NCBI GenBank assembly: GCA_964559865.1
Contig: CAZLJD010000025.1
Coordinates: 771 to 64,770, forward strand
Reading direction: 5' to 3'
From: an uncultured Synergistota bacterium
Lineage (GTDB): Bacteria; Synergistota; JAGHAJ01
DNA: 64,000 nt
This document shows positions 20,921 through 63,066 of this stretch, piece after piece (the first letter of the stretch is position 1; each line of letters starts with the position of its first letter). The position numbers and the translations under genes were made by a program. The notes under the pieces are model-generated. The model was not told the DNA's origin. It saw nothing but the letters and a program-made list of their open reading frames with translations, and did no database searches.

Positions 20921-20933
20921 AGGGGGTGAGAGT

Positions 20934-27303: not shown

Positions 27304-27342
27304 AGCATTTGGTAATATGATCTTTGGATGTTTTCATAAAGT

Positions 27343-27440: not shown

Positions 27441-27452
27441 GGTTTCTGGTAG

Positions 27453-27492
27453 GTCTCCTTTCACGAGGTCAGTGGGAGGGGACTTTTTGTTT
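27453..27492 (+). terminator. Riboswitch-linked intrinsic terminator
   Basis: GTCTCCTTTCAC-GAGGTCA-GTGGGAGGGGAC (12 bp with G-U pairs) followed by TTTTTGTTT. Confidence 0.75.
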
Positions 27493-27533
27493 ATCTAAGT
27501 TATTATTTAGTGTATGCTTAGGAGGTGTTTTAT

Positions 27534-47416: not shown

Positions 47417-49198
47417 TTGATGGAGAAGGAGATAATGGCTGCTGTTATGGCAGCGACGGCGGAGCCAGATTATATGACCAATGATAGGTTGGAGGCACTG
47501 GTAAAGGGACACGGTATGTTGAATTTAGCCACCATTGCGGCTGCGAATGTTATAACGGAAGAGATCCTTAGAGGGTTGGATTATAAGCTTAGTGATGCTA
47601 GCGTTTCTGAACTTCCCGTGGAGGATATAATGAAGAAGGCAATAGCTACAGCTAAGCTTGCTGGTGCTGATGGTGCTAATGCTGCTTTGATTGTGGCTTC
47701 TTTGATGTATATAGCAGGTACAGACGCGAGGGCGGGTGTCCCTGCGGGTAATAGGAAGATAGGTGCATTGGCGAGAATGATAGCGGGTGCAGATAGGGCA
47801 GGAGTAGCTGCAATACCTACACCGAAGCTCTCAAATAGAGTGTCGGGCTTTGCTGCTGTTAAGGCGCTTTATGAGGCAATGGAGGACGGTAGGCTTACCA
47901 GTATAGTTGGTAAGAAATTGCCTCCATTCCTTGCGGGTGGAGCTATTTATGGACATAATGTTTTGGGAGAAGATATTGTATTTCCGGAAATAGCAACTAA
48001 TGGTGCAAAGATAGCAACAGAGGCCATGATGAATGCTTATAGTGGTGCAGGCTTGCTGCCAAGTCCGTTTATATCCGCAGTGTTGGGTGCTGCTGCTACA
48101 ATGGAAATAGTTCACTCTGATGGTTTTATAGATGAAAAGTTAGGTGAATTCTTTATTGATACTACTTCTTATCTTGCTGGTAAATCTGCGGCTGAGACTG
48201 CTGGTCTGCCTGAGAAGATGAAGATAAGAGGAACGGATAGGGAGTTTGATACAGCGCACCTCATAGGAGATCTTGCGCTTTTGTTTAAGGATATAGGTGC
48301 ACCTACAGTTGTAGGTATGATGTCATTTAATGAGATTATGGCTGCCTTTGATAATGCGATATTCTATGGTGCAGGTTTCTCTGGGGGTCCAGTTAACCCA
48401 CCGTTGGGTCATGTGACATGTGACGCAGTTGTGGCGATGTGCTTGCTTATAGATAATAAGGGTGATATTGAGGCAGCAGCTGAAGTTATCAGAAAGATCA
48501 AGCAAGAGCAGTGGTTTGACCCTGAGATGGCAACGATCTCAGTGAATACGGTGGCAAGGAAGACGGAGCAGATTAAGAGAGGTCTTGTAACAGATACTCT
48601 GATATTTGCAAGTGAACCTACAAGGACTGCGGGCGTTGCAAAAAGGGCAGAAAGGGCTTATCAGATGCTCAAAGAGGGCAAACCGCTTGAGGAAGTTTCC
48701 AAAACCTTCGATGCAGAGAGGCAGGCGTTCGTCGAGAAGAAGGCTTCCGAGCTCTTGAGTGCTGTTATGGGTAAGAAGATAGAGATAAAGTTCTTGAAAC
48801 TTGCTGGTGCTGCAAGGAGAAGCCACCCGTTTGTAAAGCAATATTGGGGGTTCGATTCTGATATCGATATAGAGGTTAAGATAGATGGTAAGCCTTATAA
48901 GATAGAAGGACTTTCCCACAAGGCTTCTCCAGCCATTGCCAGAGGCGAGCTTTCTGAGGATTGGGCATTACCGATAGGTATTGCGGCTGGTGTAGCTCAG
49001 GAGTTACAGTACTCTGGCCACACCATAATAAATGTAACCATACCTGCTGCAGTTGCGGCTGCTATGGGTAAACATAATTGGAAGGATGCAGGTAAGCTGG
49101 CAGAAAACGGTGCTTACATTACTGGCGCTATTCCTGGTGCAAAGGATACCGCGCGTAAAGTTGCTAAGTTAGCTGCTGAAATTATGAAGGCTATGTGA
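47417..49198 (+). CDS. Uncharacterised 593-aa Ala/Gly-rich helical protein; candidate enzyme
   Basis: Long clean ORF with AAGGAGG RBS, own promoter and terminator; no family motif that I recognise. Confidence 0.9.
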   Translation: MMEKEIMAAVMAATAEPDYMTNDRLEALVKGHGMLNLATIAAANVITEEILRGLDYKLSDASVSELPVEDIMKKAIATAKLAGADGANAALIVASLMYIAGTDARAGVPAGNRKIGALARMIAGADRAGVAAIPTPKLSNRVSGFAAVKALYEAMEDGRLTSIVGKKLPPFLAGGAIYGHNVLGEDIVFPEIATNGAKIATEAMMNAYSGAGLLPSPFISAVLGAAATMEIVHSDGFIDEKLGEFFIDTTSYLAGKSAAETAGLPEKMKIRGTDREFDTAHLIGDLALLFKDIGAPTVVGMMSFNEIMAAFDNAIFYGAGFSGGPVNPPLGHVTCDAVVAMCLLIDNKGDIEAAAEVIRKIKQEQWFDPEMATISVNTVARKTEQIKRGLVTDTLIFASEPTRTAGVAKRAERAYQMLKEGKPLEEVSKTFDAERQAFVEKKASELLSAVMGKKIEIKFLKLAGAARRSHPFVKQYWGFDSDIDIEVKIDGKPYKIEGLSHKASPAIARGELSEDWALPIGIAAGVAQELQYSGHTIINVTIPAAVAAAMGKHNWKDAGKLAENGAYITGAIPGAKDTARKVAKLAAEIMKAM

Positions 49199-49206
49199 CT
49201 ACTTTG

Positions 49207-49243
49207 CAGGTAGGGGGTGTTTTCGCTCCCTACCTGTTTGTTT
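49207..49243 (+). terminator. Intrinsic terminator / stabilising hairpin after the 593-aa gene
   Basis: CAGGTAGGGGGTG-TTTT-CGCTCCCTACCTG followed by TTTGTTT. Confidence 0.8.
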
Positions 49244-49256
49244 GGGGGATTAGTAG

Positions 49257-49754: not shown

Positions 49755-49862
49755 ATGCATGGAGGTTCGTGGTTGCTGTCGCTTTACATCTTGGAGCAGA
49801 TAGGTTTTTGGTTAGCTGTTATCTTTTTTGTTAGGAGTAGGAGGAGAAGGGAGCAAAAGTGA
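49755..49862 (+). CDS. 35-aa single-TM putative symporter accessory peptide (not in ORF track)
   Basis: MHGGSWLLSLYILEQIGFWLAVIFFVRSRRRREQK*. TGA overlaps the symporter GTG. Confidence 0.6.
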   Translation: MHGGSWLLSLYILEQIGFWLAVIFFVRSRRRREQK

Positions 49863-51223
49863 TAGCTGTTACTGTATATCTCGGTTTTCTGTCCCTTATA
49901 GGTTTATGGAGACTTAAGAAACAGCAGACATTTGAAAATTTCTTCCTTTCTACGCAGAAGCTTGGCATGCTTGAAACATCTCTCACCTTGATGTCAACTT
50001 GGGTTGATTCTGCTATAATACTGGGTTTTAGTGGCTATTGCTACATGTTTGGCTACGATACGTTGTGGATAGCTATACCAACCTCTGTCGGTGTTTACAC
50101 CTTCTCCCTGTTCTTTGCTGCGAAAGTCAACAGGATAAGAAGAGGTTTTACGATTGGTGGTGTTATAGAGGAGGCATATGGAACGGGTGTATCTGTGGTT
50201 TCATCTCTATTCACGCTGTTGTATAGCATAACGCTAGTAGCAACGAATGTAATGGCTGCAGGGTATGTAATGCAAGTTATGGTAGGTGTGCCGTTTGTCG
50301 TGGGAGCTTTCCTGATTCTTGGAGTTGCAGTATTATATACGGTGGTAGGTGGGTTTAAAAAGGTTGTGGAGACTGACATAGCGCAGTTTTTCCTCTTGAT
50401 AGTGGGGTTGGGTGTGCTACTTTTGTTTGTATTGAAAGCTGTTGGGGGATTTGGTCATATCCAGAGAATGGCCTTTCGTTACCCAACAGCGTTTTCCGTA
50501 GGTGATGTGGCATCATTCTTTATAGTATTTACTTTCCCTTTTTGGGCAAATCCATCTTTTTATCAGAGATGTAATGCAGCAAAGTCACCTGATGTAGCGG
50601 TTGTTGGGGTTGCTACCGTTGGTTTGGTGGATTCTGTGATGACATTTGTGGCTCTGATCGTTGGGATTGCTGGAGTGATAATATTGGGGAGGGATGTAAT
50701 CCCTGATGCGGTCTTTCCTGGGGTAGTAAAGGCTGTTTTGCCTTGGGGGTTGAGAGACTTTGTAGGTTTGGCAATCCTGTCTGCTATAATGTCAACTGCG
50801 GATAGCTACCTGCTCATTGCTGGAGGGGTGATTGCTCATGATATATTGAAACCCATTAAGAGAGAAGTGATTGATGAACTTGTATATACAAGGGTTGGCA
50901 TAGTGCTTTCTGCAGCTGTTGCGTTGTTTGCAGCTATGATCTTCAAAAACATATTGGATGCTGCGATGTTTGCATTTTCCCTATTTGTTTCAAGCAATCT
51001 TATCCCACTTGTAGTGGCATTCTATGTAAAAGATGCGAAGCGTTTTGTTGCACCTTCGCTTGTTAGTATGTTAGGTGGCGGCTTAACGGTTGTGTTGTGG
51101 AAGATTTTTGATTGGGGTGATGTTTCCCTTTCCGTGATGTATGGACTTTTGGTATCCGGTATCTTGTGGTTACTATTGTACGGTTACAAAAGGGTTGTAA
51201 AGGGGCGTAGGTTGTATGGATAA
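49859..51223 (+). CDS. Sodium:solute symporter (SSS family)
   Basis: About 13 TMs, YTVVGGFKKVVETDIAQ, FYQR, SAIMSTADS. Confidence 0.92.
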   Translation: MIAVTVYLGFLSLIGLWRLKKQQTFENFFLSTQKLGMLETSLTLMSTWVDSAIILGFSGYCYMFGYDTLWIAIPTSVGVYTFSLFFAAKVNRIRRGFTIGGVIEEAYGTGVSVVSSLFTLLYSITLVATNVMAAGYVMQVMVGVPFVVGAFLILGVAVLYTVVGGFKKVVETDIAQFFLLIVGLGVLLLFVLKAVGGFGHIQRMAFRYPTAFSVGDVASFFIVFTFPFWANPSFYQRCNAAKSPDVAVVGVATVGLVDSVMTFVALIVGIAGVIILGRDVIPDAVFPGVVKAVLPWGLRDFVGLAILSAIMSTADSYLLIAGGVIAHDILKPIKREVIDELVYTRVGIVLSAAVALFAAMIFKNILDAAMFAFSLFVSSNLIPLVVAFYVKDAKRFVAPSLVSMLGGGLTVVLWKIFDWGDVSLSVMYGLLVSGILWLLLYGYKRVVKGRRLYG

Positions 51224-52004
51224 GAGGGTTTTAGAAGAGTTGTTGGAGGACTTTTCTGAAGGAAAGGTCTCAAAAGAAGATGTTTTGAAGGTATTTGAGA
51301 GTCTTCCTTATATGGATTTAGGGTTTGCACGGTTGGATACACACAGGCCATTCAGACGAGGATTGGATGAAGTAGTGTTTTGTAAAGGGAAGGCAAAGGA
51401 GCATGTAAAAGGCATTGCGAAGGCACTTTCTACTTCCACTGGTAATGTGGTTTTTACGCATGTTAACGAGGATATGTTTAGGGTTATTCAAGATGAAATT
51501 CCTGACATTGTGTATTACAAGGAGGCACTGATAGCAGCCTCTGTTAGGAGAAATGTTGATAAACCGAGAAAGGGTATAACGGTGGTTACTGCAGGCACTT
51601 CGGATATTAGGGTTGCGGAGGAGGCAGCTGTCATTGCTGAGATTTTGGGCAATGAGGTTGTTAGAATATACGATGTTGGTGTTGCCGGGATACATAGATT
51701 GTTTCCACACCTTGATACCTTGAGAAATTCGAATGTGGTTGTGACTGTTGCGGGTATGGAGGGCGCTTTAGTTACTGTAGTGGCTGGATTGATATCTTCT
51801 CCTGTCATAGCTGTTCCCACGAGCGTTGGCTATGGTGCAAACTTTAATGGACTTTCTTCTCTGCTTGCAATGTTGAATGCCTGTGTACCTGGTATAGGGG
51901 TGGTTAATATAGATAATGGTTTTGGTGCTGGGGTGTTGGCTCACATGATAAACAGTCTTGCGTACAGGGGTGATAGAAATAAAGATAGCGATACCAACCG
52001 ATGA
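51216..52004 (+). CDS. larB: Nickel-pincer cofactor biosynthesis protein LarB
   Basis: RLDTHR, TAGTSD, AEEA, DVGVAGIHRL, AGMEGAL, PTSVGYG, VNIDNGFGA. Confidence 0.93.
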   Translation: MDKRVLEELLEDFSEGKVSKEDVLKVFESLPYMDLGFARLDTHRPFRRGLDEVVFCKGKAKEHVKGIAKALSTSTGNVVFTHVNEDMFRVIQDEIPDIVYYKEALIAASVRRNVDKPRKGITVVTAGTSDIRVAEEAAVIAEILGNEVVRIYDVGVAGIHRLFPHLDTLRNSNVVVTVAGMEGALVTVVAGLISSPVIAVPTSVGYGANFNGLSSLLAMLNACVPGIGVVNIDNGFGAGVLAHMINSLAYRGDRNKDSDTNR

Positions 52005-52326
52005 TGGGGAGAAGGTATGCTCCAAGATGTTTGGTATGGCTGCATTTTATCTCATTTACGAATGTGATAGTGGAAAACTAAAGCTAATTGAAAAAAAGGT
52101 CAACCCCTATGCGAAGGAGATGCCAAGAGGAAAGACCTTTTATGTAATAGAGGTGCTCCGTGATTGTGATGTCTATGTGGTTTCTAGTATAGGAGCAAGG
52201 GGGAGAAGGAGGGTTTTGGAGAAGGGGATAACTATCTATGATGTTGAAAAAGGAATAGATATAAGTATAGTGCTGAAACGTATAGAGCTGGAGCTTTGTG
52301 GTGGACATGCTGTTGGTAGGGTATAG
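51970..52326 (+). CDS. NifB/NifX family cofactor-binding protein (start approximate)
   Basis: KIAIPTDDG...FGMAAFYLIY, DCDVYVVSSIGARG. Confidence 0.78.
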   Translation: MIEIKIAIPTDDGEKVCSKMFGMAAFYLIYECDSGKLKLIEKKVNPYAKEMPRGKTFYVIEVLRDCDVYVVSSIGARGRRRVLEKGITIYDVEKGIDISIVLKRIELELCGGHAVGRV

Positions 52327-53386
52327 CGTGAGGGCTCTGGCAGAATCTGTTGTTAAATACAGCTTTAGAGATGTGGTTGCCGTTGACTTTTTTGGGGATT
52401 GGGATTTGCGACATATTGTGGATAATGTTGAGGTCGTGGAAAGCAGGGAGCATTTGTCTACTATATTGGAAAGATATGCTAAACATGATGTAATCTATTC
52501 CTCCGTGTTGGAAAACGATGTAGTACTCCTTAACCTCTTGGGGGATAGGGTCATCGGTAACGGTGCAGAGGTGGTGGAAATAGTTAGGCCTGGCGAGAAG
52601 TGGTGGAATATTGCAGGGAGACTCCGTATAAGGATACCTAATGTTTTAACTGGGATGCTACCGTGTTGTTCGGGAAGGTGGTTGAAAAAACCTTATAAGA
52701 GTGGTGGTGGAAGAAGTATCTCTTTTTGGAGTGGCGAGAAGTTACCAGCTGGTTTTTATCTTCAAGAGTTTATAGATGGGGAGAGTTTTTCGTTTTTGTT
52801 TGTGAGTAATGGTAAAGATTTGATGCTTTTGGGTGTCACCCTTCAACTTGTTGGAGTGGACTTCCTTGGGGCTCACAGGTTTGCGTGGAGTGGAAATGTG
52901 TATCCAGCTAACCTTGAGCCTGACATCGTTGATGAAGTAAAAGAGTGGATTGCAAGGCTAACTTGTGAGGTAGGGCTTTGTGGTGTGTTTGGTGTAGATG
53001 TGATCGTGAAAGATAGCATCCCTTATGTTATAGAGATAAATCCAAGGTATACCGGTAGCATGGAGCTAATAGAGACTGCGTTGGGAATCAATATCTTTGG
53101 TCTCCACATGGGAGCGTGTAGAGGAAACCTTCCTCTTAATATTCCAGAGCCTTTGGCGTATTTCGGGAAAGGGATAGTTTATGCGGAAGTAGAACTCTGT
53201 GGTTTCAGAAGTGAAGAGATGTGGAATAGGGGTTTTAGAGATATACCGGTAGGTGAAAGCGTTATCCATAAGGGAAGCCCTGTTTGTTCTGTCTTTTCTT
53301 CAGGAGGGAGCATAGGAGAGGTAATAGATGGACTTATTGAGCAGAAGAGATGGTTGTATGAGAAGGGAGTGAGAACTTGTGTATAG
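52298..53386 (+). CDS. ATP-grasp carboligase of H4MPT/methanofuran clusters (COG2232-like)
   Basis: SVRALAES, VDFFGDWDL, KPYKSGGG, QEFIDG, EINPRYTGS. Confidence 0.8.
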   Translation: MVDMLLVGYSVRALAESVVKYSFRDVVAVDFFGDWDLRHIVDNVEVVESREHLSTILERYAKHDVIYSSVLENDVVLLNLLGDRVIGNGAEVVEIVRPGEKWWNIAGRLRIRIPNVLTGMLPCCSGRWLKKPYKSGGGRSISFWSGEKLPAGFYLQEFIDGESFSFLFVSNGKDLMLLGVTLQLVGVDFLGAHRFAWSGNVYPANLEPDIVDEVKEWIARLTCEVGLCGVFGVDVIVKDSIPYVIEINPRYTGSMELIETALGINIFGLHMGACRGNLPLNIPEPLAYFGKGIVYAEVELCGFRSEEMWNRGFRDIPVGESVIHKGSPVCSVFSSGGSIGEVIDGLIEQKRWLYEKGVRTCV

Positions 53387-53753
53387 GCTGATTACTGGTA
53401 GAACTGCAAAACAAGGTGTGGCTCTTCATGTGGGTAAGACCACAAGGCAGTATCAGGAATCGGTTGCTGTTGCCTATTTTAACGAAGAGGATATGCGGAG
53501 AAATGGGATAGCCGAGGGGGGGGCTGTTTTGCTGAGAAGCAAGTTTGGTAGAGTAGTAGTCAGGGCACATAAAGGGAGTGTCCCTAAGGGGATGGTATTT
53601 ATGCCTTACGGTCCTTGGGCAAACCTTTTGACATCTGCTGATACCAATGGGATAGGAATGCCAGATTTGAAGGGTGTAGAAGTTGATGCAACTTCCTCTA
53701 ATGAAGAAATCTGGGATTGGGAACGGGTGCTGAAAGAGGTGAATAGTCAATGA
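53379..53753 (+). CDS. fwdD: Formylmethanofuran dehydrogenase subunit D (molybdopterin dinucleotide-binding)
   Basis: LITGRT..QG, VFMPYGPWAN, GMPDLKG. Confidence 0.9.
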   Translation: MYRLITGRTAKQGVALHVGKTTRQYQESVAVAYFNEEDMRRNGIAEGGAVLLRSKFGRVVVRAHKGSVPKGMVFMPYGPWANLLTSADTNGIGMPDLKGVEVDATSSNEEIWDWERVLKEVNSQ

Positions 53754-55027
53754 GGATACAAAATGTCGTTTGCCCCTTCTGTGGTTGCCTATGTGATGAT
53801 ATAGAAGTGGAAATAGAAAGCGGAAAGGTAGTTAATGTTAAAAAGGCTTGTGGAGTGGGGAGGGCATTGTTTCTTAATCACGAAGAGGACCTTGCTGAAC
53901 CTTTAATGTATGGAAGTGTCGCTTCTATAGAGGATGTTGTGACAGAGGCTGTAAGAGTGGTATCTTCTGCTAAGCATCTTCTTATATATGGGCTTAGCTC
54001 TACATCTATAGAAGCACAAAGAATGGCGATAAGATTGGCGGAATTGGTTGGTGGCAGTATAGATCAGACATCTTCTGTTTGTCACGGACCTACGACTATG
54101 GCAATTCAACAGTCTGGGATTCCTACCTGCACGCTGGGAGAGGCAAAGAACAGGGCAGATGTTGTAGTCTTTTGGGGTTCAAATCCTTTGGAGTCCCATC
54201 AGAGGCATTATGAGAGGTACTCACTGTTTGCAAAGGGTATGTTTGTGCCAGACGGTAGGAAGGGCAGAAAACTTGTAGTTATTGATGTAAGGGATACAGT
54301 TTCTTCTAAGCTGGCAAATCTGTTTGTTCGTGTAGAGTATGGGAGTGATTATGAAGTCCTTACTGCGTTGAGGATGTTGCTCAAGGGGGTAAAACCTTCA
54401 AAAGAATGTGTAGGTGGCGTTTGTATAGATGAATTACAGAAGCTGTTAGATGTGATGCTGTCGGCGAAGTATGGTGTGATATTCTTTGGCATGGGATTGA
54501 CGATGACTGGAGGGAAGTATCACAATATAGAGGCGGCCATATCTCTTGTAAGAGAGTTAAACGCTCATGCAAGGTGGTCAATAGAAGCTATGAGGGGACA
54601 TTATAATGTCAAGGGGGCTGGGAGTGTTTTGGCTTGGCAGACGGGCTTTCCCTTTGCGGTGAATTTCTCTTTGGGATACCCGAGATATATGCCGGGTGAG
54701 TTTTCTGCTGTTGATCTACTTAGGAGGAGGGAGATAGACGCTATGCTGGTTATAGCCTCTGATCCTGTTGCTACATTTCCAAGGTCTGCTGTGAAAACAA
54801 TGATGGAGATCCCACTAATATCTATAGACCCAAAGCAAAGCTTAACAACGAAGGTAGCTGATGTCGTTATACCGACGGCGCAGGTTGGAATTGCAGCGGA
54901 AGGGACGGCTTATCGTATGGATGGTGTCCCTCTGAGGCTGAAAAAGATAGTAGATTCTCCTTTTCCTTCAGACGAGGAGGTCATTTCCTCCATAATAAGA
55001 GGAGTGAAGAAGGTGAAATATCAATGA
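53750..55027 (+). CDS. fwdB: Formylmethanofuran dehydrogenase subunit B (Mo/W-pterin)
   Basis: CPFCGCLCDD...C Fe-S motif, SVCHGP, MRGHYNV. Confidence 0.93.
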   Translation: MRIQNVVCPFCGCLCDDIEVEIESGKVVNVKKACGVGRALFLNHEEDLAEPLMYGSVASIEDVVTEAVRVVSSAKHLLIYGLSSTSIEAQRMAIRLAELVGGSIDQTSSVCHGPTTMAIQQSGIPTCTLGEAKNRADVVVFWGSNPLESHQRHYERYSLFAKGMFVPDGRKGRKLVVIDVRDTVSSKLANLFVRVEYGSDYEVLTALRMLLKGVKPSKECVGGVCIDELQKLLDVMLSAKYGVIFFGMGLTMTGGKYHNIEAAISLVRELNAHARWSIEAMRGHYNVKGAGSVLAWQTGFPFAVNFSLGYPRYMPGEFSAVDLLRRREIDAMLVIASDPVATFPRSAVKTMMEIPLISIDPKQSLTTKVADVVIPTAQVGIAAEGTAYRMDGVPLRLKKIVDSPFPSDEEVISSIIRGVKKVKYQ

Positions 55028-56655
55028 GTAGATTTGTTATAAGAAATGGTAAGATTTACGATCCTGCGAATAATGTGCATGGTGATGTGAGAGACATTTT
55101 TGTTGATAATGGGAAGATTGTTGATGCTATGGATATGGATGGCGTAGAGGTTGTAGACGCAGATGGTATGATAGTAGCCCCTGGTAATGTGGAGATACAT
55201 AGCCATATAGCAGGTCCCAAGCTTACTATAGGCAGGCTCTTGAGACCAGAAGATCATATAAGAGATGTCGTAAAAAGCGAGTATCCATTGAGATCCGGCG
55301 TTGGTTTTTCTATTCCTACTACTTTTATTACTGCTTACAGATACCTTACATTGGGATATACCACACTTATGGAGGCAGCTGTTCCACCACTGGAAGCAAG
55401 ACACACCCTTGATGAGTTAGAAGACATGCCAGTAGTTGACAAAGGTATGTATATCCTTATGGGCAATAACAACATACTGTTTTCTCTACTTAAGGAGAAA
55501 GAGTATGATATGGCAAGAGACTTTGTTGGTTGGTTATTGAAGGCCACGGGTGGTTATGCTATCAAGGTGGTCAACCCAGGTGGTACAGATAGCTGGAAGT
55601 GGGGCAAGATATTTAACTCCTTGAGAGACGAAACAGTATGGGGAATAAGACCTATTGATGTCCTTAAGCTTTTGGTTGAGAGTGTGGAATACTTTCACCT
55701 TCCGCATCCTGTTCACCTTCATACATATAATCTTGGTTCCCCCGGTAGTTATAATGCAGCTTTAGATACTATCCATGCTCTTGGGGATTATTCCTTGCAT
55801 CTTACCCATTTGCAGTATTATTGCTATGGGGGTGATAGTTGGTCCACATTTAGATCTGAGGCTGAAGAAGTTGCTGCTGAATTGAGAGATCACCCTAAGA
55901 TCACTGCAGATATGGGTCAAGTTCTGTTTGAAGATACGACTACTATGACGGCAGATACGCCGTGGCAATACAAGTTACACATGCTCACTGGTAATAGATG
56001 GGTTAGCACAGATGTTGAGGTCGAGGCGGGCTCGGGTATAGTTCCTTATAGATATAAGAGGAGTAGTATAGTTAATGCGGTTCAGTGGGCTACGGGTTTG
56101 GAACTTGCTTTGATGCTTAGCCCTTGGCAGATATTTCTGACAACAGATAGCCCGAATGGTGGACCGTTTTTTATGTACCCAGAGGTTATAAGGTGGCTAA
56201 CCAGTGAGGATGCAAGACAGGATGTGATAAGCTCGCTACCTTCCTCCTTTAAGAGAAGGACTATATTGGGAGATATCCACAGAGAGTTGTCATTAGAGGA
56301 GATAATAGTCATGATGAGTTCAGGTCCTGCTAAGGCTTTAGGTCTCAAGAATAGGGGGCACCTGGGTATTGGAGCAGATGCTGACATAGCAATATACAAA
56401 GAGAGGGGTAGTGTAGCTGATACGCTGTCCCGTGTTCATATGCTGTTTAAAAGCGGGGAGTTAGTTGTGGACGATGGAAAGATAGTTTCGGGGGAACTGG
56501 TGGGCAAACTCTTTGTTGTGGATACCGGGGTAGATGATGAGGTGTTGGGTGATAAAGTGGCAAGAATGTTCGATGAGTTCTATTCCGTTAGCTTTTCTAA
56601 CTATAGGGTAGAAGATGTGTATCTCAGGAATAGGGAGGTAGTCTGCTGTGGATAG
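55024..56655 (+). CDS. fwdA: Formylmethanofuran dehydrogenase subunit A (amidohydrolase)
   Basis: IHSHIAG, KVVNPGG, HPVHLH, TTDSPNGGPF. Confidence 0.94.
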   Translation: MSRFVIRNGKIYDPANNVHGDVRDIFVDNGKIVDAMDMDGVEVVDADGMIVAPGNVEIHSHIAGPKLTIGRLLRPEDHIRDVVKSEYPLRSGVGFSIPTTFITAYRYLTLGYTTLMEAAVPPLEARHTLDELEDMPVVDKGMYILMGNNNILFSLLKEKEYDMARDFVGWLLKATGGYAIKVVNPGGTDSWKWGKIFNSLRDETVWGIRPIDVLKLLVESVEYFHLPHPVHLHTYNLGSPGSYNAALDTIHALGDYSLHLTHLQYYCYGGDSWSTFRSEAEEVAAELRDHPKITADMGQVLFEDTTTMTADTPWQYKLHMLTGNRWVSTDVEVEAGSGIVPYRYKRSSIVNAVQWATGLELALMLSPWQIFLTTDSPNGGPFFMYPEVIRWLTSEDARQDVISSLPSSFKRRTILGDIHRELSLEEIIVMMSSGPAKALGLKNRGHLGIGADADIAIYKERGSVADTLSRVHMLFKSGELVVDDGKIVSGELVGKLFVVDTGVDDEVLGDKVARMFDEFYSVSFSNYRVEDVYLRNREVVCCG

Positions 56656-57532
56656 TATGGTAACCATGGTTGAAGATACATTTGCAGAGGCATTCAAAAT
56701 GTACGGTGTTCGTCTGATAATTACGGCTATTAACAGAGAGTGGGTTATGCACGCAGCAAGGTGTGTGACAGGATTCGCTACATCGGTTATAGGTTGTGGG
56801 TGTGAAGCTGGCATAGAAGGTGATGTGGAAGACGCTCCTGATGGCAGGGTAGGAGTAAGTGTACTCATCTTTTCGATGACCAAAGACTCCCTTGAGAAAC
56901 AGCTTTTGAACAGGATAGGACAGTGCGTTTTGACATGTCCCACTGCATCCTGCTTTAATGGGCTTGACTGTGATGAGATGCTTCCTGTTGGAAAGAAGTT
57001 AAGGTACTTTGGTGACGGGTTTCAAATGAGCAAGTTTATAAATGGTAGAAGGTTCTGGAGGATCCCCATTATGGAAGGAGAGGCATTAATAGAGGAGAGT
57101 TATGGTGTGGCTGAAGCGGTAGGGGGTGGAAATATACTCATTTTGGCAGACTCTGTTGAACATGCGCTATATGCCAGTGAGAAAGCAGTTTCTTCGGCTA
57201 ATGTGGTGAAGGGTGTAATAATGCCTTTCCCGGGAGGTGTCGTGAGGAGTGGCAGTAAGGTGGGTTCTAAATATAAGTTTTTGCATGCCTCTACAAATAC
57301 TGCTTTTGTTCCTCAATTGCGAGCACACACTTCGAAGGATTTGCTGAGTGGTGTCAGATCTGTGTTGGAAATAGTCTTTGATGGATTATCTTTGGATGCT
57401 GTTAAGAAGGCTATGAGGTTGGCTATAGAGAATGCGGTTGGGTGTGAAGGTGTATTGGGGATAAGTGCAGGAAACTATGGCGGTAATCTTGGTAAGTATA
57501 GGATATATCTGAAAGAGGTTTTGGAGGTCTGA
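56648..57532 (+). CDS. ftr: Formylmethanofuran:H4MPT formyltransferase (Ftr/FhcD)
   Basis: EDTFAEAF, GCEAGIE, RIGQCVLTCPT, PFPGGVVRSGSKVGS, SAGNYGG. Confidence 0.96.
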   Translation: MDSMVTMVEDTFAEAFKMYGVRLIITAINREWVMHAARCVTGFATSVIGCGCEAGIEGDVEDAPDGRVGVSVLIFSMTKDSLEKQLLNRIGQCVLTCPTASCFNGLDCDEMLPVGKKLRYFGDGFQMSKFINGRRFWRIPIMEGEALIEESYGVAEAVGGGNILILADSVEHALYASEKAVSSANVVKGVIMPFPGGVVRSGSKVGSKYKFLHASTNTAFVPQLRAHTSKDLLSGVRSVLEIVFDGLSLDAVKKAMRLAIENAVGCEGVLGISAGNYGGNLGKYRIYLKEVLEV

Positions 57533-57536
57533 GAAG

Positions 57537-58349
57537 ATGGTTAGGTTAAAGCTAAAAGAAGAAATTAGTGTGCCTTTGGAGATCCCTGCTGCCAAACCGG
57601 ATGTGATAGTAAAGTGTTCTGGTATTTCAGAAGTAGAACGATTACCTGTATATTACGGTAACGAAACGGCCTTTTTAGGTGATTTTTTTGAGGTGACAGG
57701 GAGAGTAGAGGATGTTGTCTTTTTAGAAGGGGATCTGAAAAAGGTGAAGAGGATTGGTGAAAATATGTCCTTTGGTACTATTGAGGTGTATGGAGATGTT
57801 GGAATGCACCTCGCCAAGGGTATGCGTGGTGGTAAAGTTTTTGTGCATGGAAATGTTTCTGATTGGATGGCATCTGGTATGAGTGGTGGTATTATTAGAG
57901 TTGATGGTAATGTTGGCAACTTTGCTTGTGCATCATACTGGGGTGAGAGAAGAGGAGTAACTGGTGGAGTGGTATTTATAAATGGCTCTGTAGGTGACGA
58001 CCTTGGAAGGAGGATGAGGAGGGGCATTGTCCTTGTATCTGGTAGTGCTGGTAAGTTTGCTGGTTCTGAAGTGATTGCTGGCACGATCTTTATCATGGGT
58101 GAGGTAGGAGATGGGCTTGGGGCAGGTATGAAGAGGGGTAGTATAGTTTTGCGTCATCAACCGGAATTATTGCCTTCATTTTTGTATAGTGGTGAATTTA
58201 AGCCTTATTTCATTTCTGTTTATTTTCGTTACTTCGAAGATGTCTTTTCTTTTGAATTGTCGTCTGTGTTTGGAAAAGGCTATTTCAGGCGATATATGGG
58301 AGACTTTCTTTCTTTTGGTAAAGGAGAGATTCTTGTATGCTTAGATTGA
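57537..58349 (+). CDS. fwdC: Formylmethanofuran dehydrogenase subunit C
   Basis: GXGXXG beta-helix repeats (GXGMXGG, RRMRRG, GAGMKRG). Confidence 0.92.
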   Translation: MVRLKLKEEISVPLEIPAAKPDVIVKCSGISEVERLPVYYGNETAFLGDFFEVTGRVEDVVFLEGDLKKVKRIGENMSFGTIEVYGDVGMHLAKGMRGGKVFVHGNVSDWMASGMSGGIIRVDGNVGNFACASYWGERRGVTGGVVFINGSVGDDLGRRMRRGIVLVSGSAGKFAGSEVIAGTIFIMGEVGDGLGAGMKRGSIVLRHQPELLPSFLYSGEFKPYFISVYFRYFEDVFSFELSSVFGKGYFRRYMGDFLSFGKGEILVCLD

Positions 58350-59266
58350 ACGAAAGGGCTTGGGGTATCCTTTTAGATGTGGTTGAACATGCAGTTGATC
58401 TTCGGGTGAGGACATTTTACTCTAAAGGCGGTGCTATTTTGGTGGATGCGGGGATTGAGGCTGAAGGCTCTCTGAATGCTGGTATACTCATCTCTGAGAT
58501 GTTGCTTTCGGGTTTGGGAGATGTAAATGTCTTTTATGCGTCTGATTGGCTTAGTGTTCAGGTTTCTACAGATTTGCCTGTGGTTGCTTGTCTTGCCTCT
58601 CAGTATGCTGGGTGGAAGATCTCTTTGGGCAGTTTTTATGGCATGTGTTCCGGACCCGGTAGGCTCTTGGGGAGCAAAGAGGAGCTCTTTGATAGGTTTG
58701 GATGGTTGGAAGGTAGCACGAGGGCAGTATTGTTTATAGAGACATCTGATGTGCCTTCTCAGGAGGTAGTGGAGTATGTGTCCGATAGTTGCAAACTACA
58801 CGAGGACAGAATAGGTATAGTATTTTCGTCTTCTAATAGTCTTGTGGGTTCCATACAGGTGCCAGCGAGAGTGGTGGAGACAGGCATCCACAAGCTCATG
58901 GAGGTAGGTTATGATGTTTCAAAGATAAGATCAGCAGTGGGGTCTTCACCTATACCTCCTATAGGTGAGAGTGCTCTGGATGCTATAGGAAAATTGAATG
59001 ATGCTATCATATATGGAGGAAGGACGATATTCTATGTGGATGATGCAGACGACTTGTCAGATGTTATTAAGAAGATTCCTTCGAGTGCTTCTGCAAACTA
59101 TGGTTTACCGTTTTTGGAAATATTCGGGCGAAACAACAATGACTTTTACAGTATAGATCCCCTTTTGTTCAGCCCGGCTGAAGTCTCTATGATATCTCTT
59201 AGAACAGGTAGGCTCTACCGTGCTGGTAGAGTGAATGTTGAGATATTGGAGAACTCTTTCAGATGA
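58337..59266 (+). CDS. mch: Methenyl-H4MPT cyclohydrolase
   Basis: DAGIEAEGS, CLASQYAGW, SGPGR, NDAIIYGG, FYSIDPLLFSPA. Confidence 0.96.
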   Translation: MLRLNERAWGILLDVVEHAVDLRVRTFYSKGGAILVDAGIEAEGSLNAGILISEMLLSGLGDVNVFYASDWLSVQVSTDLPVVACLASQYAGWKISLGSFYGMCSGPGRLLGSKEELFDRFGWLEGSTRAVLFIETSDVPSQEVVEYVSDSCKLHEDRIGIVFSSSNSLVGSIQVPARVVETGIHKLMEVGYDVSKIRSAVGSSPIPPIGESALDAIGKLNDAIIYGGRTIFYVDDADDLSDVIKKIPSSASANYGLPFLEIFGRNNNDFYSIDPLLFSPAEVSMISLRTGRLYRAGRVNVEILENSFR

Positions 59267-60135
59267 GGCTTGGTATTGTGTCTACTGGTGCGGGATGGCA
59301 AGTGGAAGAGTTGAAAAGAGCTGCTGAGGATAGAGGATGGGATGTAGTTATGCTATCTCCCACAAGGTTTTCTGTTACCCTTCCTGAGATCGATCTAAGT
59401 ATTCAGGGGAGAACTGTTACTGATTGTGATGCAGTTCTTGTCCGTAGTGTGCCACTTGGCTCTTTGGAGCAGGTGGTGTTTAGGTTGGATGTGCTGTACG
59501 CATTAGAGAGTAGTGGCATTCCAGTTGTAAATAGGCCATTTACGATAGAAAGAACAGTGGACAAGTTTTACACCTCTGTGGTGCTTTCGGGTATCGGTTT
59601 GCCTACGCCGAAGACAGTGGTTGTTGAGAGACTTTCTGATGCGATGGAATACTTTGACCAGCTTGGTGGTGATGTGGTCGTCAAACCTGTTTTTGGTTCG
59701 AATGGGGTGGGGATAGTTAGAATAAGGGATAAAGATGAGGCCTACAGAGTGTTTAAGGGGTTTCAGCTTTTAAGGTATGTCTTCTACATGCAAGAGTTTG
59801 TGCCGCACGGAGATTATGATGTTAGGGTTTTTTGGGCAAATGGAGATGTGGTTTCTGCGATGAAACGCCTTTCAGGAGGGTGGAAGAATAACATACATCA
59901 AGGTGGCAAGCCCGAATACTATAGAGTGGATGACGAACTAAGAGCGGTGTGCGGCAAGATTGCAGAGGTATTCAAAGCAGATTACCTCGGTATAGACTTA
60001 TTATTTTCGGAAGATGGCAGGATGTATGTCATAGAGGTAAATGGTATCCCCGGATGGAGGGGCTTGCAGAGTATTACGGATGTGAATATAGCAGGTGAAA
60101 TATTGAGATGCATAGAGAAAAGAAAGCTTTTATAG
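59263..60135 (+). CDS. RimK-family ATP-grasp glutamate ligase (Orf5/MptN-like)
   Basis: VDKFYTS, KPVFGSNG, QEF, DVRV, EVNGIPGW. Confidence 0.88.
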   Translation: MRLGIVSTGAGWQVEELKRAAEDRGWDVVMLSPTRFSVTLPEIDLSIQGRTVTDCDAVLVRSVPLGSLEQVVFRLDVLYALESSGIPVVNRPFTIERTVDKFYTSVVLSGIGLPTPKTVVVERLSDAMEYFDQLGGDVVVKPVFGSNGVGIVRIRDKDEAYRVFKGFQLLRYVFYMQEFVPHGDYDVRVFWANGDVVSAMKRLSGGWKNNIHQGGKPEYYRVDDELRAVCGKIAEVFKADYLGIDLLFSEDGRMYVIEVNGIPGWRGLQSITDVNIAGEILRCIEKRKLL

Positions 60136-60965
60136 TGAAGTGTGCTCAGCTTGCGTGTTTGTACGAGGCAAGCTCTCCTAAACCGGGTAATGTGTATCCT
60201 TTTAAAGGTTTCCCTGAAATGAGCTTCGTGGATTTCGTTCTTGCTTCGGTGAACACTGGGATCACATTGTACGATGTGGATAAATTTGGTGTTGGAAAGC
60301 TCATATATAGATCATTAGAGAAAACATATCAGAATCTCAGTGTGAATGTTAATCTTGGTGTGGTTTTACTGATAGTTCCTTTGGCAAGGGCGTTTTGGAT
60401 AAAAGCTGATGAGGAGCCTTTGAGAGATGCTCTTTGTGAGGTTTTAAGCTCTTTGACCGTTGAGGATGCGGAGTGGGTGTATAGGGGCATAAGAATGGTT
60501 TCGCCTGGGGGTATAGGTGAATCTAAGAAAGCAGACGTTAGGAGCACTCCAGATATTACACTCAAGGAGGCTATGAAGATTGCGGAAAGCAGGGATTCGA
60601 TTGCGTATGAGTATGCTAATTGCTATAAGATGACATTTGGTTTTTTGTATCCCCGTTTGCTCAATAATAGACAGGATTTAGGCCTTCAGGATGCAGTAGT
60701 GCACACATTTTTAGAGTTGCTTTCAGAAGTGCCAGATTCGCTTATTGTGCGTAAATATGGTATGGATGTGGCGATGGATGTGGTTAATAGAGCTCGATCT
60801 ACTCTGGCTGCTGGTGGAATGCGGAGTGCCGAAGGTAGGAAAGCTGTCTTAGACTTGGATGATTACCTTCGTAGTGGTAGGAGAAAACTGAATCCGGGGA
60901 CATCTGCTGATCTTATAGCTTCGGCTTTAATGGTCTACTTTTTGGAAGGGAATTCTGTTACATAG
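60108..60965 (+). CDS. CitG-like triphosphoribosyl transferase (Orf7-like)
   Basis: EASSPKPGNV, NLGVVLL, DSLIVRKYG, NPGTSADL. Confidence 0.88.
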   Translation: MHREKKAFIVKCAQLACLYEASSPKPGNVYPFKGFPEMSFVDFVLASVNTGITLYDVDKFGVGKLIYRSLEKTYQNLSVNVNLGVVLLIVPLARAFWIKADEEPLRDALCEVLSSLTVEDAEWVYRGIRMVSPGGIGESKKADVRSTPDITLKEAMKIAESRDSIAYEYANCYKMTFGFLYPRLLNNRQDLGLQDAVVHTFLELLSEVPDSLIVRKYGMDVAMDVVNRARSTLAAGGMRSAEGRKAVLDLDDYLRSGRRKLNPGTSADLIASALMVYFLEGNSVT

Positions 60966-60980
60966 GGAGGGGGTGGTTGT

Positions 60981-62153
60981 TTGAAAGTGGCCTATTTGGA
61001 CTGTTCCTCAGGTGTTAGTGGAGATATGCTTTTGGGTGCCATAGTTGACGGTGGGGTGAGCATTGAGGTGTTGTTTGAGAAGCTTAAAACGCTTGGCATA
61101 GAATTTGAAATGAAGAGCAGGATTGTGTATAAGAATCATGTTAGGGCAACCAAAGTAGATGTTTCTTGGGATGAGGGACACCATCATCACAGACACTTTG
61201 GTGATATCAAGCGGATTATAGCTGATTCTTCGATTCCGAATAGTGTTAAGGAGAAATCCATTGAGATTTTTCGCACTATAGCAGAAGCAGAGGCAAAAGT
61301 TCATGGATGTTCCGTGGAAGAAGTGCACTTTCACGAGGTAGGTGCAGTAGATTCCATTGTAGATGTTGTGGGTTCTGTCTTGGGATTTGAGCTCCTTGGG
61401 GTAGAGGCGTTGTATGTGTCTGCTCTGAATGTGGGTAGTGGGAGGGTGAAGTGTGCGCATGGGGTGATGCCTGTGCCTGCACCTGCTACAAGTGAGATAC
61501 TTCAGGGATTGCCGATATATTCTGATGGCCAAGGTGAACTTGTTACTCCTACTGGTGCTGCCATTGTGAAGGTGCTGTCGAGCAAGTTTGGTAGCATACC
61601 TAATATAAAGCTTGAGAAGGTTTCTCTTGGAGCTGGCGGTAGGGATATACCTGAGTTTCCTAATGTTTTGCGGATGTTTTTGGGGGAATTGGATGCGGCT
61701 GAAGGTTACGATACGGATGAAGTAGTGATCCTTGAGACCGATGTAGATGATCTTACGCCGGAGATGGTGGGTAATCTCTATGACACGCTTCTTGATGCCG
61801 GGGCACTTGATGTAGTAGTTGTTCCGGTCTTTATGAAGAAGAACAGGACTGGTTTCAGGATTTCGGTTACGGTGGGAAATGATGCTGTGATGGAGATCCT
61901 TGGCAAACTCTTTGCTGAGACTACAACCTTTGGTGTGAGGGTTAGTAGAGTTAGAAGGTACAAACTTTTTAGAGAGGAAAGGATTGTGGAGACAAGCTGG
62001 GGTAGTGTGAAGGTGAAAGTTGGTAGTGTAGGTGATAAGGCCGTTACTGTGTCTCCTGAGTATGAATCTTGCAGAGAGGTTGCCTTGAAGAAAGGTGTGC
62101 CACTTAAGGATGTTTATAGGGAAGTTATAGGCAAGGTAGGAGAAAATATTTAG
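60981..62153 (+). CDS. larC: Nickel-pincer cofactor nickel insertase LarC (full length)
   Basis: DCSSGVSGDMLLGA, HHHHRH, HFHEVGAVDSIVD, PVPAPAT, TPTGAA, MKKNR, PEYE. Confidence 0.95.
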   Translation: MKVAYLDCSSGVSGDMLLGAIVDGGVSIEVLFEKLKTLGIEFEMKSRIVYKNHVRATKVDVSWDEGHHHHRHFGDIKRIIADSSIPNSVKEKSIEIFRTIAEAEAKVHGCSVEEVHFHEVGAVDSIVDVVGSVLGFELLGVEALYVSALNVGSGRVKCAHGVMPVPAPATSEILQGLPIYSDGQGELVTPTGAAIVKVLSSKFGSIPNIKLEKVSLGAGGRDIPEFPNVLRMFLGELDAAEGYDTDEVVILETDVDDLTPEMVGNLYDTLLDAGALDVVVVPVFMKKNRTGFRISVTVGNDAVMEILGKLFAETTTFGVRVSRVRRYKLFREERIVETSWGSVKVKVGSVGDKAVTVSPEYESCREVALKKGVPLKDVYREVIGKVGENI

Positions 62154-62172: not shown

Positions 62173-63066
62173 ATGCCTAAGAAGGTTGTTTTTTTCTTGA
62201 GTAGTGACAAGTATGCAAGCCCATTTGATGTGCTTGTGCTTTACGATGGTGGGGCAGATGCGGTGGTTACATATGGGGATGTGTCTGTAGATGATGTGAG
62301 GAGCCTCGTGATGGATGCCATGTTCCCGCGGGGTCCCAAGGGGATAGGGGATACTACACTGTTTATAGGTGGCAAGGATGTAGCTAAGTGTGAGGAGATG
62401 CTGAAGGTGGCTAAAAAGACTATGTTTCCTCCGTTTGAGATTTCGGTTATCTTTGACCCGGCTGGTTCCTGCACGACTTCTGCTGCACTGGTTGCCAAAG
62501 TTGCTTACACGGTCAAAGAGAGGCTTGGGGGTACTCTTTCCGGTAGGAAAATTACGGTGTTGGCGGGTGCTGGGAATGTGGGTTCTCGTGCTGCTCATCT
62601 GTTTGCTAAGGAGGGAGCAGATGTTGTTATAGCAGATCTGGCTAATGATGTGGCCAAAAAAGTAGCAAGTGAGGTAAACGAGAAGGTGGGTTTGGGGAAG
62701 GTGAGCGTCTTCGAACTCGAAAGGTCTGATGATTCAGTTTATGAAGCGTGTAAAAATTCTGAGATTGTAGTATCCACTGCTCCTCCGGGTGTGAGAACGC
62801 TTTCTAAAGATGTCCTTGGTAAGCTTTCTGGTTGCAAGTTAGTGGCAGATATAAATGCTGTTCCACCAGAGGGTATAGAGGGGATGAAAGCAACTGCAGA
62901 TGGAGATGAGATAGCGAGCGGTGTCTTTTCTGTTGGGCCGCTGAGTATAGGTGTGGTGAAGTTGCAGGTTGAGTTGAAGTTGGTGGAGGAGGCAGTTTCT
63001 TCTCAGAAGGGTATATTTGGATATGAAGAGGCATATGAGCTTGCTAAAAAGGTGGTAGGTATCTGA
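62173..63066 (+). CDS. mtd: NAD(P)-dependent methylene-H4MPT dehydrogenase (MtdA/B/C family)
   Basis: SPFDV..YDGGAD, MFPRGP, IFDPAGSCTTSAA, DINAVPP.GIEG. Confidence 0.9.
   Translation: MPKKVVFFLSSDKYASPFDVLVLYDGGADAVVTYGDVSVDDVRSLVMDAMFPRGPKGIGDTTLFIGGKDVAKCEEMLKVAKKTMFPPFEISVIFDPAGSCTTSAALVAKVAYTVKERLGGTLSGRKITVLAGAGNVGSRAAHLFAKEGADVVIADLANDVAKKVASEVNEKVGLGKVSVFELERSDDSVYEACKNSEIVVSTAPPGVRTLSKDVLGKLSGCKLVADINAVPPEGIEGMKATADGDEIASGVFSVGPLSIGVVKLQVELKLVEEAVSSQKGIFGYEEAYELAKKVVGI

Follow-up and report, generated by a model that had tools for sequence, protein, structure and literature searches.

A candidate pincer-cofactor protein pair, X593 and a stand-alone LarC2 paralog, beside larB and larC in a methanopterin/methanofuran gene string of an uncultured Synergistota bacterium

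Introduction

In the known route to the cofactor called nickel-pincer nucleotide (NPN), LarB makes pyridinium-3,5-biscarboxylic acid mononucleotide (P2CMN) out of NaAD (nicotinic acid adenine dinucleotide), LarE thiolates P2CMN, the LarC2 domain of LarC CMPylates the 5'-phosphate, and the LarC1 domain inserts nickel and releases CMP (PMC13510736, PMC13524815). Three nickel-pincer scaffolds are known (LarA, one aldo-keto reductase (AKR), and one cyclodeaminase), and more are being sought; one discovery effort of 2026 kept only loci that had both LarE and LarB no more than 20 open reading frames (ORFs) away from LarC (PMC13524815). Since LarE is not encoded near LarC in loci like the one analyzed here, the published searches would have discarded them. 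This locus lies in a 64,000-nucleotide stretch of DNA, hereafter the window, from an uncultured Synergistota bacterium (GenBank assembly GCA_964559865.1, contig CAZLJD010000025.1, positions 771 to 64,770 of the forward strand). The window carries larB and larC among genes of one-carbon (C1) metabolism that depends on tetrahydromethanopterin (H4MPT) and methanofuran, together with a gene pair for a protein of unmatched fold, here called X593, and a stand-alone LarC2 paralog, LarC2s. From sequence comparison, we propose that the X593-LarC2s pair may represent a new class of enzyme that uses a pincer cofactor, or of system that processes one.

When the locus is compared with the LarA-LarB-LarC-LarE lactate racemase system of L. 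plantarum, LarB and LarC are clear orthologs in which the catalytic residues are conserved, and LarE joins the same module in four related X593 loci. The window locus differs in that it has neither LarA nor LarE, in that a 9-kb block of C1 genes separates its lar genes, and in that the conserved companions are an extra LarC2-only gene and the 593-amino acid X593. The two-domain LarC of Moorella thermoacetica (12BI; PMC13510736) aligns end to end with the LarC of the window, and LarC2s shares its domain family and motifs. In contrast to the Moorella protein, LarC2s is free-standing and is paired with X593 instead of LarC1, and related X593 loci have LarC1-only genes and, in one case, a LarE-LarC2 fusion. 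MK0293 of Methanopyrus kandleri (3C19, from structural genomics) is likewise a stand-alone LarC2-like protein, of ∼186 amino acids. The logic by which X593 is put forward is the same as for the published pincer enzymes other than LarA, namely that a family unrelated to LarA is co-localized with pincer biosynthesis genes, whereas X593 itself is not an AKR, not a Rossmann protein, and not LarA-like, and matched no known fold.

The H4MPT/methanofuran C1 islands of methylotrophs are said, in the literature of the Chistoserdova group, to carry fae, mtdB, mch, and fhcABCD together with genes for methanopterin biosynthesis. The window locus clusters genes for MtdB, Mch, Ftr, FwdA, FwdB, FwdC, DUF447, β-ribofuranosylaminobenzene 5'-phosphate (β-RFAP) synthase, and MptN-like, CitG-like, and AfpA-like proteins in a similar way, but it comes from an anaerobic, Synergistota-like host, it was not seen to contain a Fae gene, and the island includes X593-LarC2s and the lar genes. 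In the literature that we searched, there is no description of the X593 family, of its obligate LarC2 paralog, or of an anaerobic H4MPT/methanofuran operon in which they are embedded.

Results

From ∼44.4 kb to the end of the window, all genes are on the plus strand with small or overlapping junctions. LarB and LarC are co-oriented here in one gene string that runs from 47417 past 63966, exceeds 16 kb, and is interrupted by no gap larger than ∼110 bp; it is a string that has X593 and LarC2s at its start and that also encodes a molybdenum/tungsten (Mo/W)-type formylmethanofuran dehydrogenase, Ftr, Mch, an NAD-type MtdB, and methanopterin biosynthesis genes (Table 1). The interval 51216-62153, which a sequence-only reading of this DNA had flagged for its larB and larC, is not a lar operon, as LarB and LarC lie 9 kb apart in it with formylmethanofuran and methanopterin genes between them. 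The same reading held that the locus offers a concrete candidate client for the cofactor and a metabolic context. The locus does offer both, but the reading named no candidate, and the best one, the X593-LarC2s pair (47417-49745), is just upstream of the flagged interval and was absent from that account.

The X593 gene probably starts at ATG 47420 and not at TTG 47417, the start given by the ORF finder, because a GGAGG sequence lies a few bases upstream and the resulting protein is a better fit to the 592-amino acid close homologs. X593 has no match in Pfam or NCBIfam, and a profile built from 30 sequences finds nothing in the PDB. Its AlphaFold model (pLDDT 87, pTM 0.90) is mostly α-helical, and comparison of this model with the PDB by Foldseek gave no fold match (best TM 0.19). 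Neither homology nor fold similarity to the known LarA, AKR, or ornithine cyclodeaminase (OCD) clients was detected. The closest public relative, 95% identical, is on a contig of "Synergistetes bacterium AUK227"; homologs in general are ∼55% identical to the window protein, are nearly all 591-605 amino acids long, and come from Chloroflexota, Clostridia, Synergistota, Thermoleophilia, Desulfobacterota, and methanogens.

Nickel-pincer enzymes typically hold NPN or a variant of it by a lysine tether and a histidine ligand to nickel. In the 30-sequence alignment of X593, which has a mean column identity of 74%, many positions are invariantly Gly, Pro, Lys, His, Asp, or Glu, among them lysines 114, 137, 198, 291, 362, and 576 and histidines 180 and 332. 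This alignment has no invariant or near-invariant cysteine (the window protein has two cysteines), and X593 has no PP-loop. An exhaustive HMMER search of 1.84 billion representatives returned ∼15 full-length clusters at 50% identity plus fragments; the representatives listed include neither distant relatives nor fusion forms of greater length, and the longest of them has 627 amino acids. When 185,579 species were scanned at one genome each, X593 gave 132 matches. As judged from these sequence comparisons, the X593 family is small, isolated, and strongly constrained.

To place the pair in its genomic context, the window proteins were mapped onto 81 non-redundant X593 loci, 42 of them archaeal (mostly methanogens) and 39 bacterial (several phyla). 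The next gene downstream of X593 encodes LarC2s in 68 of the 72 loci with enough sequence; of the four exceptions, three have LarC2s within ∼4 kb. In 29 loci of the 81, 17 from archaea and 12 from bacteria, LarB or a LarC that includes LarC1, or both, are encoded no more than 10 kb from X593; these 29 span Methanosarcinaceae, one Methanobacteriaceae locus, Thermoleophilia/Actinomycetota, Clostridia, Sporomusa, Desulfobacteraceae, and Synergistota. The order of these genes varies, from X593-LarC2s-LarB-LarC in Methanosarcinaceae and Thermoleophilia to LarC2s-LarB-LarC1-X593 in Desulfoscipio and Gracilibacter. The link to C1 metabolism is also recurrent: in 23 of the 39 bacterial loci, X593-LarC2s is directly upstream of genes for MtdB, an ATP-grasp protein, FwdD/B/A, Ftr, FwdC, Mch, MptN, and CitG, often with pterin biosynthesis genes. 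The window keeps this bacterial arrangement, with the transporter and LarB genes inserted and LarC placed ahead of MtdB.

LarC2s exceeds the cut-off of the LarC2 domain model as a free-standing ORF that has its own start and stop and is unfused to LarC1. Members of the LarC2s group retain the family motifs KKGR and E-x-G-T-x-G-x-R, and they are ∼26% identical to the LarC C-terminal domains of neighboring full-length LarC proteins compared with 38% within the group. The best PDB match of LarC2s is the uncharacterized MK0293 (32 bits).

We considered whether LarC2s could be the detached half of a split LarC. This is suggested by the fact that 9 of the 27 LarC genes neighboring X593 are LarC1-only, and it is weakened by one locus (L090), which encodes a 402-amino acid fusion of LarE (234 bits) to LarC2 (77 bits) at 6591-7799 on the minus strand, adjoining LarB and a LarC1-only gene, and which additionally has X593 with its own LarC2s. 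Because a LarE-LarC2 fusion is present there besides LarC2s, a split LarC with LarC2s as its second half is too simple a view, and from these sequences LarC2s is best seen as the partner of X593 itself. The LarC1-only genes encode proteins of 250-292 amino acids (L003, L043, L058, L062, L065, L070, L073, L084, and L090), and such genes beside X593 are common in Clostridia, Thermoleophilia, Desulfobacteraceae, and Sporomusa. Locus L090 also contains an ornithine-cyclodeaminase-family gene ∼1.5 kb beyond the LarE-LarC2 fusion.

The earlier statement that larB and larC are intact is borne out, as both proteins exceed curated cut-offs and conserve the residues of known importance. LarB scores 275.2 bits against the NCBIfam LarB equivalog NF033503 (cut-off 175) and 225 bits against L. 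plantarum LarB (7MJ0), and its MLNAC segment aligns with MLNSC of the latter, so that the cysteine of MLNxC is conserved. We take this residue to be the counterpart of the catalytic, pyridine-adduct-forming Cys221 of the L. plantarum enzyme. LarC contains both LarC1 (TIGR00299, 222 bits; cut-off 90) and LarC2 (NF052512, 141.8 bits; cut-off 50) in a single chain, and it scores 473 bits against Pfam Ni_insertion and, end to end, 327 bits against Moorella LarC. It has Asp15, His53, Arg71, His72, Glu104, His108, His116, His118, Glu119, Asp124, Asp128, His160, and Glu186 (Glu187 of the Moorella enzyme), and keeps all of the His-cluster and acidic-pocket residues that were mutated in the published study, in which each substitution lowered activity with the exception of H72A (PMC13510736). 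Judged by sequence, the LarB and LarC of the window are canonical and apparently functional, and its lar genes are ordinary members of their families.

Scans for the other lar genes agreed with the earlier reading that larA and larE are missing from the window. The LarE PP-loop motif SGGxDS does not occur in any of its six frames, three verified LarE queries had no phmmer match in its six-frame translation, and LarE was not found in the 3.5 kb past its end on an overlapping contig (L087). Proteins of the LarA (DUF2088/Lar_N, ∼420 amino acids), AKR, or OCD type were not found among the ∼45 window ORFs scanned with Pfam or NCBIfam.

The further step in that reading, from the lack of larE here to a sulfur-free pincer, is a weak one, since LarE is often unlinked to LarC and since it adjoins LarB/LarC in four X593 loci. 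In general, ∼54% of LarE genes adjoin LarC (PMC13082051). The four X593 loci in which a TIGR00268 LarE (234-304 bits) stands beside LarB/LarC (L035, L058, L084, and L090) are those of Methanolobus bombayensis, a Desulfobacteraceae metagenome-assembled genome (MAG), Sporomusa acidovorans, and L090; a three-Cys motif, which is associated with the [4Fe-4S] type of LarE, is present in all three of these LarE sequences that were read. LarE is within 10 kb in 3 of the 29 LarB/LarC-bearing loci of the 81-locus set, and L090 came from a separate look-up. The presence of lar genes elsewhere in X593 genomes whose loci lack them was checked at the genus level, for Methanobacterium; LarB is common in this genus, which also carries X593, and the LarB of Methanobacterium petrolearium is without lar neighbors in its flanks of ∼3 kb (to the contig end) and 8 kb. 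Because LarE is often unlinked to LarC and lar genes are scattered in Methanobacterium, the absence of LarE from the window is unremarkable by itself. By default, a sulfur-free pincer would not be expected, though it is possible.

Several other gene families recur in X593 loci. Genes for AKR-ferredoxin fusions of ∼400 amino acids stand beside lar genes in L004/L008 (7979-9178), L040 and L069 (in both, between LarC2s and LarB), and L086 (5599-6801), and Methanococcoides methylutens has such a fusion with LarB-LarC-LarE and no X593 within 10 kb. These fusions are candidate archaeal pincer AKRs because AKR-fold pincer enzymes were described in 2026. DUF2193 proteins (∼510 amino acids) are encoded near X593 in eight loci (L018/L085, 6352-9482; L021, L030, L039, L063, L070, and L071) from Anaerolineales, a deltaproteobacterial MAG, and Thermoleophilia, and the one sequence read has a Cys-rich C terminus. 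FMN reductases resembling iron-sulfur flavoproteins are encoded near X593 in seven loci, and the two families occur together in most DUF2193 loci.

Table 1. Features of the window from 44.4 kb to its end
Feature	Coordinates	Strand	Basis
DUF447 (FMN-binding split-barrel type)	44445..44999	+	Pfam DUF447_N 69.5 bits, DUF447_C 45.9 bits
β-Ribofuranosylaminobenzene 5'-phosphate synthase family	44996..45940	+	TIGR00144 155.5 bits (cut-off 113.5)
CdaR/PucR-type regulator (Diacid_rec + GGDEF_2 + HTH_30)	45933..47159	+	Pfam; directly upstream of X593
X593, 592/593 amino acids, family and fold unclassified	47417..49198	+	Without Pfam, NCBIfam, or PDB match
Stem-loop, 14 pairs (8 G-C), between X593 and LarC2s	49206..49237	+	
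LarC2s, stand-alone LarC2-domain paralog, 162 amino acids	49257..49745	+	nickel_LarC2 NF052512 67.2 bits (cut-off 50); Pfam Ni_insertion positions 247-371
Sodium:solute symporter family	49859..51223	+	Pfam SSF 106 bits; under all NCBIfam equivalog cut-offs
LarB, pyridinium-3,5-biscarboxylic acid mononucleotide synthase, 262 amino acids	51216..52004	+	NF033503
NifX/NifB-C-terminal-like small protein (Nitro_FeMo-Co family)	51958..52326	+	Pfam 47.2 bits
ATP-grasp_3 ligase, weak MfnD-like match	52298..53386	+	Pfam, NCBIfam
Formylmethanofuran dehydrogenase subunit D-like	53379..53753	+	FwdD 111.5 bits, under cut-off 175; Molydop_binding on identical contig L001
Formylmethanofuran dehydrogenase subunit B	53750..55027	+	TIGR03129 553.7 bits (cut-off 327.8)
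Formylmethanofuran dehydrogenase subunit A	55024..56655	+	TIGR03121 661 bits
Formylmethanofuran:H4MPT formyltransferase (Ftr)	56648..57532	+	NF002554 407 bits
Formylmethanofuran dehydrogenase subunit C	57537..58349	+	TIGR03122 232 bits
Methenyl-H4MPT cyclohydrolase (Mch)	58337..59266	+	TIGR03120 339 bits
RimK-family glutamate ligase, MptN-like	59263..60135	+	TIGR00768 205.8 bits (cut-off 143.4); MptN model 261.9, under cut-off 350
CitG-family (triphosphoribosyl-dephospho-CoA synthase-like)	60108..60965	+	Pfam CitG 210 bits
LarC, CTP-dependent nickel cyclometallase, full-length (LarC1 + LarC2), 390 amino acids	60981..62153	+	TIGR00299, NF052512
MtdA/MtdB-type methylene-H4MPT dehydrogenase	62173..63066	+	Pfam Mpt_N 100.6 bits; 171 bits against M. 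extorquens MtdA (6TGE/1LU9)
ADP-ribosylglycohydrolase family	63067..63966	+	Pfam 190.7 bits

The window is 43% G+C with a strongly positive GC skew, and it is bacterial because it carries flagellar and chemotaxis genes at 90-13092. ORFs other than the ∼45 scanned were named from their translations alone and are recognizable flagellar, chemotaxis, ABC transport, and thiamine genes. Within the gene string, FwdA, FwdB, FwdC, Ftr, and Mch all exceed their equivalog cut-offs, and the Cys-His dipeptide in the SSVCHGP segment of FwdB is read, from the sequence, as the active-site pair. A redox-active dehydrogenase is likely over a hydrolase complex, because this Cys-His pair, FwdD, and a riboswitch-controlled Mo/W transporter are all present. 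The riboswitch is of the molybdenum/tungsten cofactor type (85.5 bits, 27333-27455 on the plus strand) and stands ahead of genes for a ModA-like binding protein, a permease, and an ATPase (27525-30158); such a transport system at 27 kb is what one would expect alongside a formylmethanofuran dehydrogenase that depends on Mo/W, whose genes lie 25 kb downstream.

In methanopterin synthesis, β-RFAP synthase acts at the first committed step, and the DUF447 family encoded beside it recurs in methanopterin gene islands and also near X593 at other loci. The ATP-grasp_3 ligase gene always follows MtdB in the related bacterial loci. The ADP-ribosylglycohydrolase gene is translationally coupled to MtdB within the C1/methanopterin operon and is found at this position in this lineage only. 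The metagenome contig that overlaps the window end continues from the ADP-ribosylglycohydrolase gene with genes for an MptH-like protein, an AfpA-like flavoprotein, and an FAA hydrolase before the strand switches. Elsewhere in the window, a thiamine pyrophosphate riboswitch (63.3 bits, 20773-20885 on the plus strand) lies upstream of a thiamine block (20880-25316) with genes for two small membrane proteins, a cytosine/thiamine-type permease, ThiD, and ThiM-like and ThiE-like proteins.

The stem-loop in Table 1 is a strong one and directly follows the X593 stop codon. A hairpin of equal stability and different sequence is found in the 95%-identical locus (L005), the predicted structure being conserved by compensatory change in this relative, and the spacer between X593 and LarC2s is very stably structured in many other loci, to −85 kcal/mol. 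The hairpin is probably a partial terminator or an mRNA-stabilizing element; its position after X593 would fit expression of X593 above that of the downstream accessory genes. Upstream of X593, no riboswitch or known RNA was found, and the repeats in the spacer between the CdaR-type gene and X593 are short and unconvincing. Counts of promoter and terminator consensus sequences were no higher than in shuffled sequence, with this hairpin alone standing out.

The 3' end of the symporter gene overlaps the start of LarB, and both the symporter and the CdaR/PucR regulator upstream of X593 are found in the 95%-identical locus too. In Sporomusa acidovorans (L084, 5951-8621 and 12100-12492), X593 is flanked by genes for a major facilitator superfamily transporter and an enolase-superfamily (mandelate racemase-type) protein and by a small Diacid_rec ORF. 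A sugar-diacid link drawn from the CdaR-type regulator of the window and these Sporomusa genes was followed by iterative search, which found no other such locus, and it is taken as a hint only. The MtdB-type dehydrogenase has a canonical GxGxxG motif and an aspartate that suggests NAD, and it is ∼40% identical to the NADP-dependent MtdA. MtdB as a hidden pincer client is not favored, as its NAD site looks canonical.

Discussion

The reading that we prefer, with a probability of about 0.55, is that a canonical pincer pathway, with LarE encoded elsewhere in the genome, supplies X593 as a new client or a final processing enzyme tied to methanopterin C1 metabolism. In the proposed pathway, LarB is predicted to convert NaAD to P2CMN, the LarE encoded elsewhere would thiolate it, and LarC would insert nickel. 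The product would then be used by X593, either as a pincer-dependent enzyme of new fold or in a last processing step before one. LarC2s may act as a dedicated nucleotide-handling partner that supplies or activates the cofactor for X593 by putative CTP binding and CMPylation. Because CMPylation of the 5'-phosphate is the only known activity of LarC2, X593 may take a CMP-linked (dinucleotide) cofactor, for which the NPAD cyclodeaminase provides a dinucleotide precedent (PMC13524815).

More speculatively, X593 could transfer hydride in a reaction that adds to or draws from the methylene/methenyl-H4MPT pool, since pincer-cofactor chemistry is hydride transfer and since the pair is upstream of the MtdB-Fwd-Ftr-Mch genes in most of the bacterial loci. 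Equally speculative is the suggestion, from the transporter and the CdaR-type regulator, of an imported organic-acid-like substrate. Further hints in favor of the proposed mechanism come from the FMN reductases and DUF2193 proteins encoded near X593 and from the hairpin after its gene. Taken furthest, these ideas would make X593 a third, structurally new class of nickel-pincer enzyme that is loaded by LarC2s, possibly with a cytidine-dinucleotide cofactor, and whose hydride transfer, in anaerobic bacteria and some methanogens, would connect the methenyl/methylene/methyl-H4MPT pool with either an imported substrate or a partner of the flavin/ferredoxin kind; such a reaction might, for example, be that of an F420-independent methylene-H4MPT reductase, or it might be a new entry reaction. 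We offer this extended version tentatively, as a possibility with the odds against it.

A number of observations weigh against the preferred reading. About two thirds of X593 loci, including those of Methanobrevibacter and many Anaerolineae, are without LarB/LarC within 10 kb. Other plausible clients are encoded near lar genes, namely the AKR-ferredoxin fusion in Methanosarcinaceae and the ornithine-cyclodeaminase-family gene in L090, and part of the adjacency of lar genes to X593 could be hitch-hiking. When the LarE of Methanolobus bombayensis was used as a query, its best 120 matches, most of them unnamed, included Methanococcoides, Methanohalophilus, and Methanohalobium and no named Methanosarcina or M. 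vulcani, and LarE may be absent from some X593 genomes. In its predicted model, X593 appears mostly α-helical and without a recognizable nucleotide-binding fold. Moreover, the evidence for this candidate link between X593 and a pincer cofactor is gene neighborhood throughout, from comparative genomics alone.

Among the alternatives, the one that we take most seriously, while still judging it unlikely, is that X593 and LarC2s form a cofactor-processing or alternative insertion system. X593 would then replace LarC1 and act on the CMP-activated intermediate made by LarC2s, giving a modified pincer (a cytidine-dinucleotide form, or one with another metal) for another enzyme, such as the adjacent MtdB-like dehydrogenase. 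This would be in keeping with the known activity of LarC2, which is CMPylation alone followed by hand-over to a metal-insertion domain, with the many X593-LarC2s loci that have no nearby LarC1, and with the many invariant Asp, Glu, and His residues of X593, which are loosely reminiscent of LarC1 with its acidic pocket and His patch. MtdB is directly after LarC2s in most bacterial loci, and in the window LarC is directly before MtdB; the NPAD dinucleotide pincer, bound non-covalently by a Rossmann enzyme, is a precedent for such a client (PMC13524815). However, the need for a second insertase is not obvious where a complete LarC is encoded, as in the window and in Methanosarcinaceae loci, the NAD site of the MtdB-like protein is of the ordinary GxGxxG-Asp kind and the protein resembles MtdA, and the hairpin suggests an excess of X593 over the downstream gene products, which would fit a catalytic enzyme better than a maturase. 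It is improbable, in our view, that LarB and LarC instead serve a conventional client elsewhere (a LarA homolog, an NPN-type AKR, or an NPAD-type cyclodeaminase) and that their position in the C1 operon beside X593 is accidental. The frequent scattering of lar genes, the other candidate clients near lar genes in some X593 loci, and the 9 kb of unrelated genes between LarB and LarC in the window speak for such an accident, but co-localization of lar genes with X593 recurs across several phyla and the archaea with differing gene orders, the pairing of X593 with LarC2s is near-universal while LarC2 is without a known role outside pincer synthesis, and no LarA, AKR, or OCD gene is present in the window.

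The pair could also be biosynthetic for methanopterin or methanofuran and unrelated to nickel; for example, LarC2s might CMP-activate a ribose-5-phosphate end that X593 transfers to give a phosphodiester. Bacterial pairs do stand among genes for β-RFAP synthase, DUF447, MptH-like proteins, AfpA-like flavoproteins, MptN, CitG-like proteins, and HPPK/GTP cyclohydrolase, and a CMP-activated 5'-phosphate would suit phosphodiester formation. Yet all methanogens make methanopterin, whereas X593 matched so few of the species scanned and most well-known methanogen genera have no member among the homologs listed; moreover, the adjacency to LarB, LarC1, and LarE in methanogens, with no methanopterin genes nearby there, would be unexplained. 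We regard this account as very doubtful. Least probable of all, we think, is that LarE is absent genome-wide and that the pincer made by LarB and LarC together with X593 and LarC2s is free of sulfur or modified in some other way, with X593 perhaps replacing the missing step. The lack of LarE in the window and the 3.5 kb beyond, its rarity near the LarB/LarC-bearing loci, and the fact that the 120 best relatives of the Methanolobus protein include no LarE named as coming from Methanosarcina are all consistent with such a pathway. Against it, X593 has neither an invariant Cys nor a PP-loop and so cannot act like either known type of LarE, LarE stands beside LarB/LarC in four X593 loci and is frequently unlinked to LarC in general, and the known substrate of LarC is a dithio compound.

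If X593 is a new client or processing enzyme of a canonical pincer pathway, as we prefer, then this locus and its 80-odd relatives make a highly conserved protein of unmatched fold the next pincer-enzyme candidate. The locus places pincer biosynthesis within a methanopterin/methanofuran C1 operon of strict anaerobes, as well as in methanogens, and suggests that organometallic nickel hydride chemistry may operate in C1 metabolism beyond the classical enzymes of methanogenesis. It also provides a first functional lead for stand-alone LarC2 proteins, including the one of known structure from M. kandleri (3C19).

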